Part shown: in pieces, positions 51,773-64,000 of the stretch | Layout of the letters: each line of letters opens with the position of its first letter | How positions within the stretch are numbered: position 1 is the first letter of the stretch | Assembly: GCA_963827655.1 (NCBI GenBank) | Contig: CAWHCF010000023.1 | Coordinates: 160,001-224,000 of the forward strand | Reading direction: 5' to 3' | DNA length: 64,000 nt | Origin: an uncultured Acidobacteriota bacterium | GTDB lineage: Bacteria; Acidobacteriota; UBA6911 | The notes under the pieces: generated by a model | What the model was told of the DNA's origin: nothing | The model's database searches: none | What the model saw: only the letters and a program-made list of their open reading frames with translations | Position numbers and translations under genes: made by a program

Positions 51773-51994
51773 CACTCTAACGTCCGCCTTGCCTCGAACG
51801 AATACCACCAGGACACGAAGACACGAAGAAACACCAAGGCAAGAGACGTACCAGGCTGATGTCTTGTCAACTGTCCGGGTTTGCGAAAGTTACCAAACGC
51901 CGCAACGCTCCTGCTTCCACCGGGTGTCCGGCTCTGGGACCGCTTTGTCCAGAATCGCACACAGCGGCCGCAAGACTCCGGGCGTCTTTACACC

Positions 51995-53127: not shown

Positions 53128-53303
53128 CGATTTACGATTGACGATTACGATTGACGATTGAAACTGCATTCGTCATTACGAACTGCTGCGCCCGTTATCC
53201 ACATGGATCTGGCTACGATTGACGATTTACGATTGAAACTGCATCGCGAACGGTTAGTCACCGAGCCCAATCGTAAATCGTAAATCGTAAATCGTAAATC
53301 GAA
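53128..53303. repeat. Heptamer tandem repeats (ACGATTK)n and inverted (AATCGTA)n
   Basis: Tracts at 53128-53160 and 53215-53235, and an inverted tract at 53269-53303, in the gldA/polB divergent region. Confidence 0.85.
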
Positions 53304-55619
53304 ATGCGGGCATTCATCCTGAATCCCACCTATCGCGTCGTCCGGGGTACTCCGGAAGTCCATCTGTATAGCGTACTCGAGTCCGGCGAGCCCTGCGTGA
53401 TCATCGACGATCGCATGCGCCCTTACTTCTTTGTCCGCGAGGTCGACGAACCGAAGGTTCGAAAGCTGGCACCGTCTGCTGCGCTGGAACCCTGTAACTT
53501 GCGCAGCTTTGCCGGGGAAGCTGTTTTGCGGCTGGAAGTCTCTGTTCCCGGGGAGGTGCCGGCGTTACGGCAACGCCTGGAAGACGCAAGCGTGGAATGT
53601 TTCGAAGCGGATGTTCGCTTCGCCTATCGTTACATGATGGACCGGGGCATTCGTGGCTCATTCGAGGTGGAGGGTCCTTCCGCGCATAGCGGATCTCTCG
53701 GGCGCATCTATCGCAATCCGGTGCTGCATCCGTGTCCATGGGTCCCGCATCTCAAGGTACTATCGATCGATCTCGAAACAAGTCCCGATGGAGCAAGGCT
53801 GTACTCGGTCGCGTTTCACAGCCCTGACTTCAGCCGCGTACTTATCCTCCACGACTCGGTTCGGAAACAGGCCGATGTGGAAATCGTTCACTCCGAACCG
53901 GAGCTCATCCTGCGCTTTCTCCAACACGTCAGCCGGCAGGATCCCGACATCCTTACGGGGTGGAACGTCGTCGATTTCGATCTGGTCATGCTGGCACGCG
54001 CGGCCCGACGGCACGGGATGCGCTTCGCCATCGGACGCACGGACGACGATTTCGATTCCAGGCGGGAAGCGTCCTACACGCGCGAGTCACGAGCCCTGAC
54101 GTATGGACGCCTCGTGCTTGACGCCCAATCATTGATGCGAGGCGCCTTCATTCGACTTCAGGACTACAGGCTTGAGACCGCGGCGCAAAACATCCTCGGG
54201 CGCGGCAAACTGATCAAAGGCGCGGATCGCCGCTTCGAGATCGAGCGCCTTTATCGCAGCGATCCGCAGAGTCTGGTGCAATACAACCTGGAAGACGCCC
54301 GCCTGGTCACCGAGATTCTGGACCGGACCGGTCTGATCAATCTCGCCATCGAGCGGAGTCTACTCACCGGCATGCCGCTCGACCGGGTGAGCGCCGCTAT
54401 CGCTTCGATCGATTCGCTCTATCTTCGCGCCCTGAGGAGCCGGGGCGTGGTGGCGCCCTCGGTCGGCCGGGACGTCCGGCAAGCCAGCATCACAGGCGGC
54501 TACGTAATGGACGCCCAACCGGGACTCTATCGCAACGTCCTGGTCTTCGATTTCAAGAGCCTCTACCCCAGCATCATTCGGACCTTCAATCTCGATCCCC
54601 TGACGCTGGTTTCGAACGGCGCAGCGGCTGCAGACGCACTGGCCGCGCCTAACGGCGCGCGCTTCCGGCGCGACGTGCAGGGGATTCTGCCCGATCTGGT
54701 GGCAAAGGTTGCCGAGGAGCGCGAACAGGCCCGGAAGGCAGGCCAACACGTCAAGGCTTATGCGATGAAGATCTTGATGAACTCCCTCTATGGGGTCCTG
54801 GGTTCCGGCGCTTCCCGGCTGTTCTTTCCCTCGGTGGCCAATGCCATCACTTATTTCGGTCAGCTATTGATTCGGACCGCCGCCGAATTCGCATCGGGTT
54901 CAGGGTATCGCGTCATCTACGGCGATACCGACTCCCTGTTCGTCGATTCCGCCGAGGATGATTCGGAGCGCGCGCTCGCCGTCGCGCACCGCTTGCGCGT
55001 CAATATCGGGGACGCCGTAGCGGCTTTCGTGCGCGAACGATTCGCCTGCGAGAGCTATCTGGAACTCGAATTCGAGAAACTGTACGCGCGCTTTTTCCTG
55101 CCCGAGGTGCGCGGCGGAAAGATCGGGAGCAAGAAACGATACGCGGGCCTTGTGATCGAGGCGGACGGCAGCGAACGTCTCGAGTTCGTCGGCCTGGAGT
55201 ATGTGCGCCGGGACTGGAGCGATGCCAGCAAGAAATTTCAAAAGGAATTGTTGAACCTGGTCTTTCACGACCGGCCCGTCGCGGACCTGGTTCGAAGCTT
55301 TGTCGCGGATTTGCGCGCGGGCGGTCTTGATGGGCAGCTGGTCTATCGAAAGGCCGTACGCAAGGATCTGGAGGACTACACAAAAACCACGCCGCCGCAC
55401 GTTCAGGCGGCGCGCCGGCAGCGTCATCCGGGCAGCCGCCTGGTCGAGTATGTGATGACCCATCATGGCCCGGAACCGGTCGGAGAGGAGACGGCGCCGC
55501 TCGACTACGAGCACTACATCGAGCATCAGATCAAACCCGTCGCCGACGCGATTCTCCGGTTCCTCGGAACCAGCCTTGACGGCATATTGGATGCCAGGCG
55601 GCAGCTGAGCCTTTTCTGA
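53304..55619 (+). CDS. polB: DNA polymerase II (family B)
   Basis: Exonuclease motifs SIDLET, GWNVVDFD, YNLED; polymerase motifs DFKSLYPSII, KILMNSLYG, YGDTDS, SKKRYAG; C-terminal QLSLF clamp-binding motif. Confidence 0.95.
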   Translation: MRAFILNPTYRVVRGTPEVHLYSVLESGEPCVIIDDRMRPYFFVREVDEPKVRKLAPSAALEPCNLRSFAGEAVLRLEVSVPGEVPALRQRLEDASVECFEADVRFAYRYMMDRGIRGSFEVEGPSAHSGSLGRIYRNPVLHPCPWVPHLKVLSIDLETSPDGARLYSVAFHSPDFSRVLILHDSVRKQADVEIVHSEPELILRFLQHVSRQDPDILTGWNVVDFDLVMLARAARRHGMRFAIGRTDDDFDSRREASYTRESRALTYGRLVLDAQSLMRGAFIRLQDYRLETAAQNILGRGKLIKGADRRFEIERLYRSDPQSLVQYNLEDARLVTEILDRTGLINLAIERSLLTGMPLDRVSAAIASIDSLYLRALRSRGVVAPSVGRDVRQASITGGYVMDAQPGLYRNVLVFDFKSLYPSIIRTFNLDPLTLVSNGAAAADALAAPNGARFRRDVQGILPDLVAKVAEEREQARKAGQHVKAYAMKILMNSLYGVLGSGASRLFFPSVANAITYFGQLLIRTAAEFASGSGYRVIYGDTDSLFVDSAEDDSERALAVAHRLRVNIGDAVAAFVRERFACESYLELEFEKLYARFFLPEVRGGKIGSKKRYAGLVIEADGSERLEFVGLEYVRRDWSDASKKFQKELLNLVFHDRPVADLVRSFVADLRAGGLDGQLVYRKAVRKDLEDYTKTTPPHVQAARRQRHPGSRLVEYVMTHHGPEPVGEETAPLDYEHYIEHQIKPVADAILRFLGTSLDGILDARRQLSLF

Positions 55620-55721
55620 GCAACTCGAGCTTCGACAAGGTTCTTAGGGTTTCTTCGTGTCTTGGTGTCTTAGTGGTATTTTTTCCTCGCGGCTCTAACC
55701 ACGAAGACACGAAGGAGTAGA

Positions 55722-60397: not shown

Positions 60398-61507
60398 TTG
60401 AGTGACGCAAGAAGGAAAACAGTCATGCACCGAAGTGATGTGGTGGGCAGTCTGTTGCGTCCGGCCTACCTGAAGGAGGCGCGAGAGCGCCACGACTCGG
60501 CTGAACTCACCGATACGGTCTTCAAGCGCATCGAGGACCGAGCCGTTGACGAAGCGGTGGCTCTGCAAGAGAGAGCCGGGATCGACGTGGTCAGCGATGG
60601 CGAGATGCGGCGCTACGCATTCTATGGTCACCTCATCGAGGCCGTGGAGGGGTACGACAAGTTTGGGGGCTGGGCCATCCCGTTCCGGAATGAAGAGGGA
60701 GAGGAAATTATTCTAAGACGCCCCGTGGTCGTCTCACGCTTGCGCCGCAAGCGTCATCTGTGCGCGGAGGAATTCACCTACTTGCGCGCGCGAACCAACC
60801 GCGCCGCCAAGACTACGCTGATCAGCGCGCAACAGGCGGCGGCCTACTACGACCGCAAGAAGTCGAGCGCCGCCTACATCACGATTGATGCCTACCTGGC
60901 GGACCTGGTCGACATCCTGCGCGGAGAAGTAGAGGAGTTGATCCGTCTGGGCTGCACTTACATCCAGATTGACTCCCCGCAATACGCCGCGCTGCTGGAT
61001 TCCGACCTGCGCGAAGGATACCGCAAGCGCGGCAACGACCCGGATCGGCTGCTGGATCTGTCGATTGAGATGGATAATGCGGTGATCGGCGATCATCCGG
61101 GCATTACCTTTGGCCTGCATCTGTGCCGGGGCAATAACCAGAGCAAGTTCTATGCCCGCGGAGACTATGGACCGATCACCCGGGTCTTTCGCAACACAAA
61201 GTTCCAACGCTTCCTGCTGGAATTTGACGATGAACGCTCCGGGGGCTTTGAGCCGCTCGGCCAGATGCCGGAAGACAGAACCGTCGTGCTGGGACTGGTG
61301 AGCTCAAAGCAGGGAGCGCTGGAAAGCAAAGAAGAGTTGAAACGCCGCGTCCAGGAAGCCGCGGCCATTATTCCGCAGGAAAGACTGGCACTGAGTCCAC
61401 AGTGCGGATTCGCGTCAACCATGGAGGGCAACCTGTTAACGCCGGATGATCAGGAAGCCAAACTGCGCCTGGTGGCAGAAACCGCTCGAGAGCTGTGGGG
61501 CGCATGA
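60398..61507 (+). CDS. Cobalamin-independent methionine synthase II family protein
   Basis: DVVGSLLRP, SDGEMRR, HLCRGN, LEFDDERSG, LSPQCGFAS. Confidence 0.92.
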   Translation: MSDARRKTVMHRSDVVGSLLRPAYLKEARERHDSAELTDTVFKRIEDRAVDEAVALQERAGIDVVSDGEMRRYAFYGHLIEAVEGYDKFGGWAIPFRNEEGEEIILRRPVVVSRLRRKRHLCAEEFTYLRARTNRAAKTTLISAQQAAAYYDRKKSSAAYITIDAYLADLVDILRGEVEELIRLGCTYIQIDSPQYAALLDSDLREGYRKRGNDPDRLLDLSIEMDNAVIGDHPGITFGLHLCRGNNQSKFYARGDYGPITRVFRNTKFQRFLLEFDDERSGGFEPLGQMPEDRTVVLGLVSSKQGALESKEELKRRVQEAAAIIPQERLALSPQCGFASTMEGNLLTPDDQEAKLRLVAETARELWGA

Positions 61508-61511
61508 CCCG

Positions 61512-61598
61512 ACTTAGTGTTTCTTCGTGCCTTCGTGTCTTCGTGGTTAGAATTGTCTAACGAATACCACTAAGACTCAAAGACGCGAAGAAACACGA
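61512..61598. repeat. Inverted pair of the ~35-bp octamer-based dispersed repeat (representative copy)
   Basis: TTAGTGTTTCTTCGTGCCTTCGTGTCTTCGTGGT...ACCACTAAGACTCAAAGACGCGAAGAAACAC. Other copies near 2701, 5407, 10799, 16670, 20095, 29063, 47971, 51801, 55641 and 57171. Confidence 0.8.
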
Positions 61599-61677
61599 TG
61601 TATACTCTCTCTCAATCAACACGGATCCGGACTATGCGGAAGTATTTGCTCGGACGTCGCAACCTGCCACAAGGGGG

Positions 61678-63057
61678 TTGACCATCGCAGAATCGAGCAT
61701 TTTCTGGGACACGCTGCTCCAGCTGATAGAGGAAGGCAAGGTCGTTCCGATCGCGGGGCAGGATCTTTTGACCATCGACACGCCGGCGGGTTCGAAGCTG
61801 CTCTATGCCTACCTCGCCGAGCAGCTGGCCGGATATCTTGGAATCTCCGGTGACAGCTTGCCGGCGGGCAACGAACTCAACGAAGTCGCCTACCGTTTCC
61901 TGGCGCAAGGCAACCAGCTGGAGGATATCTATCCCGCGCTGAAAGCAGTCGCCTCCAAAGTCGAGGCTTTACCGGTCCCAGAACCACTGCTCCAGCTGGC
62001 CGACATCCGTCCGTTGCAGTTGTTTGTCACTACCACCTTCGATTCCTTCTTGACACGAGCGATCAACCAGAAACGCTTCGGAGGCAACGCGACGACCAGA
62101 GTAATCGCCTATTCGCCCACCGAGCTGGCAGACCTGCCCGGCGACATGAAGAGTTTGAATTCGCCCATCGTCTATCACCTGCTTGGCAAGCTGTCGTCTA
62201 CTCCGGCCTATGCCGTCACCCAGGAAGACTTCGTTGAGTTCTTCCACTCGCTGCAATCGGGGACGCGGCAGCCTCCGCTGCTGTTCGACGAGTTGAATCG
62301 GCAAAGCTTGATGGTTCTTGGCAGCCGCTTCAGCGGCTGGCTGGCACGTTTCTTCATGCGCATGCCCAAGCGGCAGCGTCTTTCGGCCGGAGGCAAGAGT
62401 GATTATGTCGTCGATGCAGAGGTGAGCAACGACGGCAATCAGGTGCTGTTCCTTAAGAACTTCAGCAAGGCGACAAAAATCTATCGCAGCGGGGGAGTTC
62501 TCGAGTTCGTCCGTGAACTCCATGGCCGCTGGAGGGAACGTCACCCCGAAAACACTGAGGTTGTTGCCGCGCCCTTGGATTCCTCCCTGGCACCTCAACT
62601 GAGACCCGGTGCCGTATTTCTGAGCTACGCCAGCGGCGACGCCGAAGCGGCGGAAAAGCTCAAGATGGGCCTGGAAGGAGCCGGCGTTGACGTATTCTTC
62701 GATCGGGAGCAGCTGGAACCTGGAGACGATTGGGAGGCAAAACTGCGGCGCAGCATCCACCACTGTTCGCTGTTCCTTCCGATCATCTCGCAGCACACTT
62801 TGACTCCCGAGCGCCGCTTCTTCCGCATGGAATGGAACCTCGCCCTCGAAGAGGCCCAAAAAGCTTCCTTCTCTGATGACGAAGCATTCCTGCTCCCCGT
62901 CGTAATCGATGATACGAAAATCGACGACCCTGCAATTCCATCCAGGTTTCGCGCCACCCAATGGAAATCACTCCCCGGCGGCCAACCGACACCGGATTTC
63001 GTCAGCCGCGTGCAGCAGCTCTATCGAAAGTACCTGAAATCCCGAGCGAGGACCTGA
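61678..63057 (+). CDS. SIR2-like domain + C-terminal TIR domain protein
   Basis: SIR2-like: VVPIAG, FVTTTFD, VYHLLG, LMVLGSRF. TIR: VFLSYASGD, VDVFFD...LEPGDDW, FLPIIS, FFRMEW, LLPVVID. Confidence 0.85.
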   Translation: MTIAESSIFWDTLLQLIEEGKVVPIAGQDLLTIDTPAGSKLLYAYLAEQLAGYLGISGDSLPAGNELNEVAYRFLAQGNQLEDIYPALKAVASKVEALPVPEPLLQLADIRPLQLFVTTTFDSFLTRAINQKRFGGNATTRVIAYSPTELADLPGDMKSLNSPIVYHLLGKLSSTPAYAVTQEDFVEFFHSLQSGTRQPPLLFDELNRQSLMVLGSRFSGWLARFFMRMPKRQRLSAGGKSDYVVDAEVSNDGNQVLFLKNFSKATKIYRSGGVLEFVRELHGRWRERHPENTEVVAAPLDSSLAPQLRPGAVFLSYASGDAEAAEKLKMGLEGAGVDVFFDREQLEPGDDWEAKLRRSIHHCSLFLPIISQHTLTPERRFFRMEWNLALEEAQKASFSDDEAFLLPVVIDDTKIDDPAIPSRFRATQWKSLPGGQPTPDFVSRVQQLYRKYLKSRART

Positions 63058-64000
63058 TGCACGTCGAAGAGGGGGTCCCGCAAGCTCCATCCGGCTCGTC
63101 AACCGTCAGCACCGACAATCCTTGGCCGGGACTGCTGGCCTTTCGCGAAGCGGATCAAGGTTATTTCCAGGGCCGCAAAGCCGAGACCGAGGAACTGTTT
63201 CGCCTGGTGATGCGCGAACGCCTGAGCGTTTTGTTCGGTCTTTCCGGCCTGGGCAAGTCCTCGTTGCTGCAGGCCGGTCTCTTTCCCTTGCTGCGCCGCG
63301 AAACCGTTTTCCCGGTCTATATCCGCCTGGACTTCTCTGACCCAGAGCCCGAGCTGGTCGGCCAGGCAAAGGCCGATATTGCCCGCGAAGCGTCGGCGGC
63401 GCACATCGAAGCTCCACCGGCCAAAGCCGGCGATACGCTCTGGGAATACTTTCACCGCCAGGACAACGACTTCTGGAACGCCCGCAACCAGCCCGTGATT
63501 CCTCTCCTGGTTTTCGACCAGTTCGAGGAGATCTTCACCCTTGGCCGCGTAGACCCAAACCGCACGCGAGCCACGGAAGCGCTGATCGAGCAACTCGCTG
63601 ACCTGGTCGAAGGCCGGCCTCCTGCAAGACTCAAAGCCAGACTTGACGAGCATCCCGAGGAAACCAAGGAATTCTTGTTCTCACATCACGATTACAAGAT
63701 TCTCCTCAGCATCCGTGAAGACTTCTTGCCGGACCTGGAAGCCTTGCGCACCCGCATGCCGGCTCTGTCACTGAACCGATTCCGCCTCCGGCGAATGAAC
63801 GGCGAGGCTGCCGTTCTGGTAGTGAATCAAGCCCGGCACCTGATCGATCCCGATGTCGCCGAACAGGTGGTGCGCTTCGTTGCCGCCGACCAGCGCCGCC
63901 TTCCGCTTGCCGATCTCGAGGTGGAACCCGCGCTCCTGAGCGTCGTCTGCCGGGAACTGAACAACAAGCGTCGAGCCCTGGGTGCGCCGAAGATCACCGC
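63057..64000 (+). CDS. nSTAND1-type STAND NTPase, N-terminal part (runs off the window)
   Basis: ATG overlaps the upstream TGA (TGATG). My translation gives NPWPGLLAF...FQGR, Walker A GLSGLGKSS, Walker B LLVFDQFEE, ILLSIREDFL. Absent from the ORF track because it has no stop. Confidence 0.85.
   Translation, partial: MHVEEGVPQAPSGSSTVSTDNPWPGLLAFREADQGYFQGRKAETEELFRLVMRERLSVLFGLSGLGKSSLLQAGLFPLLRRETVFPVYIRLDFSDPEPELVGQAKADIAREASAAHIEAPPAKAGDTLWEYFHRQDNDFWNARNQPVIPLLVFDQFEEIFTLGRVDPNRTRATEALIEQLADLVEGRPPARLKARLDEHPEETKEFLFSHHDYKILLSIREDFLPDLEALRTRMPALSLNRFRLRRMNGEAAVLVVNQARHLIDPDVAEQVVRFVAADQRRLPLADLEVEPALLSVVCRELNNKRRALGAPKIT

Follow-up and report, generated by a model that had tools for sequence, protein, structure and literature searches.

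A SIR2-TIR/nSTAND1 gene pair of an uncultured acidobacterium: a candidate NLR-like module with a degenerate SIR2 domain and a probably extracytoplasmic YEATS-fold sensor

Do two overlapping genes at the edge of an acidobacterial DNA segment encode an immune receptor and its effector, and on which side of the membrane would such a receptor meet its ligand? The genes in question lie at the 3' end of a stretch of 64,000 nucleotides (the window; contig CAWHCF010000023.1 of assembly GCA_963827655.1, G000:C23:160001-224000 in our numbering) from an uncultured member of the Acidobacteriota (UBA6911), whose assembly comprises 8.18 Mb in 53 contigs and is 90.3% complete. A first-pass annotation, made from the letters of the window, had described gene 1 as a 459-residue SIR2-like/TIR fusion, the stop codon of which overlaps via TGATG with the start of gene 2, a STAND nucleoside triphosphatase (NTPase), and had proposed a split sensor/effector system. 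With a probability of roughly 0.6, we consider the pair a two-gene conflict or immunity module of the nucleotide-binding leucine-rich repeat receptor-like (NLR-like, STAND) kind, in which an extracytoplasmic sensor would control a TIR effector provided in trans.

The open reading frames (ORFs), the Pfam matches and the bases at the junction all agreed with the fusion and the overlap. The TGA of gene 1 (63055-63057) and the ATG of gene 2 (63057-63059) have one base, the A, in common, and a GAGGA sequence is located at 63048-63052, 4 nt 5' of the ATG. An alternative in-frame ATG for gene 2 is present at 62961; the start at 63057 was favored because a paralogous gene starts 2 nt after the stop of its partner and because of the alignment of ten NTPases. 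The three Pfam models named for verification in the first-pass annotation were run, and all of them scored above their cut-offs. SIR2_2 matched residues 115-236 of the gene 1 protein (E 8.3e-07, 29.6 bits, cut-off 24.5), TIR_2 matched residues 313-433 (E 5.2e-20, 72.6 bits, cut-off 28), and nSTAND1 matched the part of gene 2 that lies within the window (E 8e-29, 101.9 bits, cut-off 27.1). Gene 2 encodes 639 amino acids in total and extends 976 bases beyond the window, to C23:224976; the C-terminus of the sensor had correctly been placed outside the window.

Which of the two potential nicotinamide adenine dinucleotide (NAD+) hydrolase (NADase) domains of gene 1 could be active? The AF2 model of the protein (mean predicted local distance difference test score, pLDDT, 80.7; alignment of 25 sequences) was compared with known structures by VIA. 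Residues 1-290 matched SPARSA (8y80_E, Z 19.0), DSR2 (8wyb_C, Z 18.6), KomC (9v0g_E, Z 18.6), SeThsA (7uxt_A, Z 18.3), and, over residues 4-291, EfAvs5 (9jap_A, Z 16.6). By profile and by fold this is a defense-type SIR2 domain, but the catalytic residues of such a domain are missing. We take the Asn of TTNYD and the His of the xHG motif to be the SIR2 catalytic pair, and the PDB titles DSR2(H171A) and KomBC(H146N) agree with a catalytic role of the His. The gene 1 protein instead carries TTTFD at residues 118-122 and YHLLG at residues 166-170, deviations from the NADase consensus that had been pointed out before and are indeed present. A profile of ten SIR2-like domains of the family aligned sttFD with TTNYD and hllG with KLHG of SeThsA (E 0.008). 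TTTFD also stood opposite TTNYD in a BLASTP alignment to a stand-alone canonical SIR2_2 protein, and in this alignment the Gly-rich loop reads IAGQ where the canonical protein has LGAG.

The replacements are a property of the whole family. In an alignment of 121 sequences (the window protein, 2 paralogues, 4 loci, and those 114 of 120 listed homologues with 430-540 amino acids), the Asn position is occupied by Thr (114), Ser (6), or Ala (1) and never by Asn, and the His position by Met (57), Leu (54), Phe (8), or Thr (2) and never by His. Parts of the nucleotide pocket region are kept, with G27 in 119, D29 in 116, D122 in 120, and G170 in all 121 sequences. Moreover, 34 of the 57 columns that are invariant in 25 sequences of the gene 1 family fall within residues 1-290. 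Judged by its residues, the SIR2-like domain is thus a retained, non-catalytic SIR2 that is conserved as well as the TIR domain, and the degeneracy claimed in the first-pass annotation holds for the family at both catalytic positions.

The TIR domain presents the opposite picture of its catalytic-type residue. It resembled the TIR domain of the SPARTA TIR-APAZ protein most closely (VIA, 8ifl_A, Z 16.2, root mean square deviation (rmsd) 2.5, 135 residues aligned at 21-22% identity), and profile matches were obtained to PdTIR, SPARTA, AbTIR, and SARM1. The motif FFRMEW is found at residues 381-386, and its Glu385 is Glu in 121/121 sequences; a comparison of nine diverse TIR domains from the family showed Glu385 and Ala389, but not Trp386, to be among the invariant residues. 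A profile of these nine domains matched the SPARTA TIR-APAZ chains (E about 1e-09) with Glu385 on chain residue 77. According to the accessible part of the SPARTA report (PMC9097488), Glu77 is catalytic and its substitution by Ala abolishes NADase activity. On SARM1 (7knq_A), profile positions 8-87 fell on residues 563-648, which would bring position 81 (Glu385) to about residue 642, provided that the last columns contain no gaps. The catalytic-type Glu reported for this domain is therefore kept, invariant and aligned with SPARTA Glu77, and we regard the domain as a TIR with a catalytic-type Glu in helix alpha-C, a predicted NADase.

The NTPase core was analyzed in the full-length gene 2 protein. 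nSTAND1 (PF20703) matched residues 22-403 (E 6.7e-29, 102.1 bits, cut-off 27.1), in line with the statement that almost nothing precedes the NTPase domain. As evident from Table 1, the Walker A and Walker B motifs are invariant at their key positions, and by these motifs gene 2 encodes a STAND NTPase of the nSTAND1 clade with intact Walker A Lys/Ser and intact Walker B acidic residues.

If gene 1 supplies the effector, then the two genes should travel together. At E 0.001 or lower, 790 relatives of gene 1 were found among 8000 scored candidates, and SIR2 and TIR domains occur together in 117 of the 120 listed homologues. Language-model clusters for gene 1 were named 'SIR2-like/TIR domain-containing protein' and were mostly labeled Acidobacteriota. 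The SIR2-TIR gene is present in 5/401 sampled genomes of the phylum and in 6/137 of the class, the host genome being counted in both samples. In 9/9 other genomes (L005, G178, G094, G070, G230, G431, G432, G403, and G467) the next gene downstream, in the same orientation, encodes an nSTAND1 NTPase. A search of the 401 genomes with the NTPase gave strong matches (E 6e-113 or lower outside the host) in the same 5 genomes that carry the SIR2-TIR gene, and one additional distant relative in G310 (E 3e-26). In a contig search, L005 was the sole true relative; the candidates L006 and L007 were rejected as TIR-only or chance matches. Only the SIR2-TIR and NTPase genes are common to six loci. Pairwise identities of the two proteins correlate with r = 0.84 (28 pairs from 8 loci), a value that is descriptive only because the loci are kin. 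Adjacency and common orientation in all nine genomes support the earlier proposal that effector and NTPase are separate polypeptides of one system, and the pairing is kept across genomes rather than confined to the window.

The host genome itself carries the pair at three more loci, all with WD40 sensors: G000:C50:180966-186312 (L002), C35:92934-98007 (L015), and C43:765-4315 (L021). The copies on C35 and C43 resemble near-duplicates, as seen without aligning them together; the first is located at a contig end and the second within 1 kb of one.

The distant relative in G310 (L032, G310:C110:26146-30402) is an nSTAND1 gene with a transmembrane (TM) helix and WD40 repeats, 30% identical, that stands behind two tandem stand-alone SIR2_2 genes without TIR. 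The proximal SIR2_2 gene has the motifs TTNYD and FHLYG, the distal one FHLHG. Because these SIR2_2 neighbors lack a TIR, this kind of NTPase seems to have SIR2_2 as its general partner, the fusion of a TIR to a dead SIR2 being a special state particular to the gene 1 family; the module may originally have been arranged as at L032.

What would such an NTPase sense? A cytosolic repeat sensor at the C-terminus of gene 2 had been a candidate and was displaced by the domains found past the window end, a TM-like helix, a stalk, and a YEATS-fold domain. Residues 447-465 form a strongly hydrophobic stretch (19 residues, Kyte-Doolittle mean 2.57). In an AF2 model of residues 440-639 (53 sequences, pLDDT 95.4), one 80-residue helix, serving as a stalk to about residue 520, is followed by a seven-strand sandwich, and the domain spans about residues 540-639. 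YEATS domains were the only ones among the matches listed by Foldseek against the PDB, GAS41 being the best (E 8.8e-06). VIA, a search independent of Foldseek, likewise returned eight YEATS domains on top (Z 8.2-10.1, 84-101 residues aligned). When residues 471-639 were searched against 1.84 billion representatives, 269 clusters were retrieved at E 0.001 or lower. Fifty-nine of 150 listed homologues were scanned with Pfam; 22 contained pYEATS (E 0.001 or lower), 16 of these above the cut-off, and 3 also matched the eukaryotic YEATS family PF03366. Other domains in the scanned set were nSTAND1 (23), Peptidase_C1 (4), AAA_35 (2), ParA (1), canonical SIR2_2 (1), and PAN (1). These homologues together with the fold led us to assign the C-terminal domain of gene 2 as a predicted divergent pYEATS, its membership being established through transitive matches and the modeled fold.

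The pYEATS-like domain is also found elsewhere, with canonical SIR2_2, Peptidase_C1, PAN, ParA, and AAA_35 domains (P0166, P0223, P0235, P0243, P0211, P0269, P0163, and P0198) and in many small proteins of about 200-260 amino acids that consist of anchor, stalk, and pYEATS. The Peptidase_C1 relative P0223 has an N-terminal hydrophobic, signal-like stretch just below the threshold for a TM-like helix, which we defined as a 19-residue window with a Kyte-Doolittle mean of 1.8 or more.

By this definition, a single TM-like window precedes the pYEATS-like domain in 45 of 47 homologues of 550 amino acids or more, and 42 of 63 short homologues (150-340 amino acids) have one as well, mostly near the N-terminus. 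In the long homologues with exactly one window (two with two windows and two with none were omitted), Lys and Arg were counted in the 15 residues flanking the helix; the N-side was in excess in 39/43, with means of 5.6 versus 2.8. Furthermore, one window directly follows the NTPase in 8/8 partner proteins tested, whether of the pYEATS, WD40, or TPR type. A place outside the cytoplasm would also fit the conservation of Cys609 and Cys634, the sole Cys residues of the C-terminal domain (110/121 and 108/121 sequences, respectively), which would suit a disulfide, and the occurrence of related domains behind the signal-like stretch of P0223 or fused to PAN. Since the ATPase is necessarily cytoplasmic and a single TM-like helix lies in between, the pYEATS-type sensor is most likely periplasmic; that is, the ATPase of gene 2 probably resides in the cytoplasm and its sensor probably faces the periplasm.

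The sensor varies over this constant arrangement. pYEATS sensors occur in the window (C23) and at L005, G230, G431, and G432, WD40 sensors at C50, C35/C43, G178, G094, and G070, and TPR sensors at G403 and G467. In a tree of the NTPases, the pYEATS types form one clade (support 97/95), and the remaining branches are unresolved. STAND immune receptors typically keep a constant core and swap their sensors.

Table 1. Positions of the features of the gene pair (window coordinates unless a contig or locus is given)
Feature	Position	Strand	Basis
Gene 1, SIR2-like/TIR fusion protein	61678..63057	+	ORF, 459 aa, TTG start, TGA stop; Pfam SIR2_2 and TIR_2
SIR2-like domain, residues 1-290	61678..62547	+	AF2 model and VIA structural matches
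Thr120 codon, position of the catalytic Asn of TTNYD	62035..62037	+	Alignments
Leu169 codon, position of the catalytic His of KLHG	62182..62184	+	Alignments
TIR domain, residues 309-454	62602..63039	+	TIR_2 E 5.2e-20; VIA; profile matches
Glu385 codon, predicted catalytic Glu of TIR	62830..62832	+	Conservation and SPARTA alignment
TGATG stop/start overlap of genes 1 and 2	63055..63059	+	Direct sequence reading
Gene 2, first 314 of 639 codons, nSTAND1 NTPase	63057..64000	+	Full ORF taken from the genome
Walker A GLSGLGKSS, residues 61-69	63237..63263	+	S63, G64, G66, K67, and S69 invariant in 10 NTPases
Walker B region DQFEE, residues 154-158	63516..63530	+	D154, Q155, F156, E157, and E158 invariant in 10 NTPases
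Gene 2, remainder past the window	C23:224001-224976 = L004:8002-8977	+	TM-like helix, stalk, YEATS-fold domain

From the computed domain make-up, residue states, strict pairing, and conserved TM-like helix we infer a topology, a binding mode, an NADase activity, a trigger, and an immune role. The outer YEATS-fold sensor would bind a ligand, upon which the NTPase would oligomerize in a nucleotide-dependent manner on the cytoplasmic side of the membrane. Docking or scaffolding of the gene 1 protein on this NTPase platform would then fall to the dead SIR2 domain, and the TIR domains so assembled would cleave NAD+, for depletion or as a signal. Growth arrest or death of the attacked cell would be the outcome. 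This sequence of events is modeled by analogy on solved STAND and TIR systems. According to the titles of PDB entries, defense SIR2 domains are the oligomerizing parts of ThsA, DSR2, and KomC filaments. ESMFold2 models of NTPase residues 1-430 together with the whole gene 1 protein scored 0.02 and 0.09 (mark 0.32); they were run without controls and give no verdict on binding.

How does the pair relate to known systems? PADLOC and NCBIfam searches with both proteins revealed no full match to a named system. No Avs model of PADLOC-DB 2.0.0 matched either protein at E 1 or lower, ThsB models matched gene 1 weakly (PADLOC, E 0.011 and 0.058), and the type III ThcB4 model of NCBIfam scored 19 bits against gene 1 (cut-off 220). 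All four domains belong to catalogued families. No description of the SIR2-TIR and nSTAND1 pair, of the dead-SIR2/TIR partner, or of a span between core and sensor was found in the literature searched, to which subscription journals and bioRxiv supplements did not belong.

Thoeris also combines SIR2 and TIR folds, and its ThsA was the best whole-chain structural match to gene 1. In Thoeris, TIR and SIR2 reside on separate proteins and the SIR2 protein is the effector, whereas in gene 1 they are fused, the SIR2 is dead, a SLOG match is lacking, and a STAND NTPase is obligatory. Avs5 (AVAST type 5; EfAvs5, 9jap) shares with the window pair a defense-type SIR2 fold that works with a STAND NTPase. 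It is one polypeptide and its SIR2 is an active NADase; the window system, by contrast, consists of two genes with a dead SIR2, an added TIR, an nSTAND1 NTPase, and a sensor behind a membrane span. With no Avs model matching and the effector encoded by a separate gene, the pair does not classify as Avs/AVAST. The nearest solved relatives of each domain alone are SPARTA for the TIR (Z 16.2) and SPARSA for the SIR2 (Z 19.0). The window pair differs from both by having no APAZ domain and no Argonaute, a STAND NTPase being the likely organizer; SPARTA is activated by nucleic-acid-guided tetramerization, as stated in the accessible text of the report (PMC9097488).

A close precedent for gene 2 is the group of nSTAND1 systems predicted to act as counter-invader conflict systems (Kaur, Iyer, Burroughs, Aravind, eLife 2021, PMC8195603; PF20703). 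As far as the available portion of that article describes them, these systems share with the window pair the NTPase clade, a constant core with variable sensors, and TIR among the effectors, which are either fused or recruited by paired effector-associated domains. Gene 2 differs in having 21 residues before the core and no effector-associated domain, and the pair differs in its dead-SIR2/TIR partner and in the TM-like helix between core and sensor. The words SIR2 and YEATS are absent from 8 supplementary files of the article. TIR-ParA systems use pYEATS as a C-terminal ligand-binding sensor on an NTPase that works with TIR, according to the accessible part of a preprint (bioRxiv 10.64898/2026.10.19.760177). 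They resemble gene 2 in this C-terminal pYEATS on a TIR-associated NTPase, and the ParA-pYEATS protein P0269 is among the homologues of the domain; their NTPase is, however, a SIMIBI ParA rather than STAND, and a dead SIR2 is not mentioned in that part of the text. Periplasmic lectin sensors have been predicted on some NTPase targets diversified by diversity-generating retroelements, and the portion of the source at hand (PMC10907252, preprint 10.1101/2023.09.22.558884) contains no pair of the present kind.

Could the pair work in another way? It might be argued that the SIR2-like domain keeps its nucleotide pocket, senses NAD+ or a nucleotide made by the TIR, and gates the TIR, an inverted, fused form of the ThsB-to-ThsA logic. 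The conserved pocket-region residues G27, D29, D122, and G170 would fit this idea, and gene 1 aligned end to end with ThsA (BcThsA 8bto_A, Z 19.2, 377 residues), although the rmsd of 18.5 indicates a different domain arrangement. The degraded Gly-rich loop (IAGQ versus LGAG) and a C-terminal domain that is TIR by sequence (E 5.2e-20) and not SLOG speak against it, and we consider a regulatory SIR2 unlikely. The conditions under which the hydrophobic helix would fail to span the membrane, or the C-terminus would loop back, are harder still to reconcile with the data. The sensor would then be cytosolic and Avs-like, its pYEATS domain reading a cytoplasmic phage protein or a modified host protein, just as Avs5 and other bacterial STAND defense proteins form cytosolic filaments (titles of 9jap and 9nc9) and eukaryotic YEATS domains read acyl-lysine inside cells (PDB entry titles). 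Because of the helix mean of 2.57, the same place of the helix in all partner types, the positive-inside bias in 39/43 proteins, and the short relatives built of N-terminal anchor, stalk, and pYEATS, we deem a cytosolic sensor very improbable.

The trigger need not be a phage. The pair could form a device for transmembrane signaling or self/non-self discrimination, set off by envelope damage, toxins of competitors, or kin recognition and answering with TIR-driven arrest. This would be compatible with a probably extracytoplasmic sensor, with the different sensors at the four loci of the host genome, and with a locus amid metabolic genes, as well as with the link, drawn in the accessible parts of PMC8195603 and PMC7159879, between nSTAND1 systems and a social or multicellular lifestyle of bacteria. 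On the other hand, all characterized bacterial STAND/TIR structural neighbors found belong to anti-phage or anti-plasmid systems, and among the neighboring genes no regulator or transporter is conserved alongside the pair; such a non-phage device therefore appears to us rather unlikely.

Several observations weigh against an NLR-like immune module with an extracytoplasmic sensor. The rarity of the SIR2-TIR gene (5/401 and 6/137) would fit any accessory gene and not immunity alone. The locus is not situated in a defense island; its flanks consist of metabolic genes, and of the 22 flanking ORFs, 21 were without a PADLOC match at E 1e-05 and one had a partial match. Beyond the TIR domain, neither protein was matched by a PADLOC or NCBIfam system model. 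In the alignment with PdTIR (3h16), FFrvEW fell on FFKKEW behind a 7-residue gap, a register in which Glu385 stands opposite the first Glu of that stretch; the SPARTA register was preferred because Glu385 is the sole invariant acidic residue of the helix. The pYEATS (PF20305) match of gene 2 itself (residues 573-622, E 0.002) stayed below the Pfam cut-off with 18.4 versus 26.9 bits. The topology is read from hydrophobicity and charge counts only, and the disulfide between Cys609 and Cys634 is a guess.

Broken copies count on the same side. The NTPase-WD40 genes of the three paralogous loci of the host (C50, C35, and C43) are split over two or three frames and are either pseudogenes or assembly errors. 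Copies disrupted by insertion sequences (IS) were present in all three genomes of one genus: in G230 (L020) a DDE_Tnp_1 element lies within the SIR2-TIR gene, in G431 (L036) two IS1595-type copies lie within the NTPase gene, and in G432 (L037) one IS1595-type element separates the NTPase and pYEATS parts and the SIR2-TIR gene is split. Hosts can therefore do without the module, which may be costly, and the repeated independent inactivation by IS suggests a cost.

The surroundings of the pair were inspected as well. A 773-residue ORF (53298-55616, + strand), which may be no more than an ordinary gene of the helicase-like or intein-bearing kind, gave a partial match to the PADLOC model 'HEase' (PDLC03707, E 1.3e-43, profile positions 82-406 of 1671). 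A scan of the locus for promoters and terminators yielded nothing above shuffles. With 0.56-0.61 in the pair and 0.55-0.67 in the flanks, the GC content gave no clear sign of recent transfer. Many studies of soil and rhizosphere have yielded metagenomes that contain DNA near-identical to window positions 61500-64000. Pieces of 151-369 bases from both genes were present in contigs from three metatranscriptome runs, none of them across the junction, which is a weak hint at transcription of both genes, DNA carry-over being possible.

A tandem octamer repeat, CTTCGTG plus one base, was matched 15 times (up to 2 mismatches) versus 0.28 times expected. The sites are 61523-61545, 2701, 10800, 16679, 29075, 47971/48008, 51806-51828, 55653-55714, and 57174, often in inverted pairs. 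The copy 5' of gene 1 lies in the intergenic gap and matches many unrelated metagenome contigs that diverge beyond the repeat. By sequence, the repeat looks like a REP-like dispersed element.

For the two-gene module with its TIR effector in trans, an outside-in chain of events may tentatively be drawn in full, although we regard this elaborate form as more doubtful than the module itself. A periplasmic YEATS domain would read an acylated or acetamido-bearing envelope molecule that appears there during attack, such as a fragment of the cell wall or a protein of the invader, and would signal through one span to an NLR-type ATPase, on which the TIR would be assembled by an SIR2 turned adaptor. 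Toll-like receptors likewise have an outside sensor, a single span, and TIR signaling inside, with the TIR on the receptor chain and without an NTPase. The likeness is an analogy of working logic only; there is no homology in sensor or span. If true, the outside-in chain would give prokaryotes a counterpart to the logic of Toll-like receptors, and the YEATS fold would have its first role outside chromatin.

To our knowledge, bacterial STAND/NLR-like defenses have been described as detecting phage proteins in the cytosol. If a conserved clade carries its sensor beyond a membrane span, the reach of NLR-type immunity would extend to the envelope, where an attack could be sensed before the cytoplasm is infected or without such infection. 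As a probable ligand reader outside the cytoplasm, the YEATS fold can be tested with a small soluble domain, and the module, having two genes only, is suited to heterologous tests. It also offers a clean natural case in which one NADase fold, the SIR2, would have given up catalysis and become the partner of another, the TIR, a case that bears on how TIR assemblies are nucleated.

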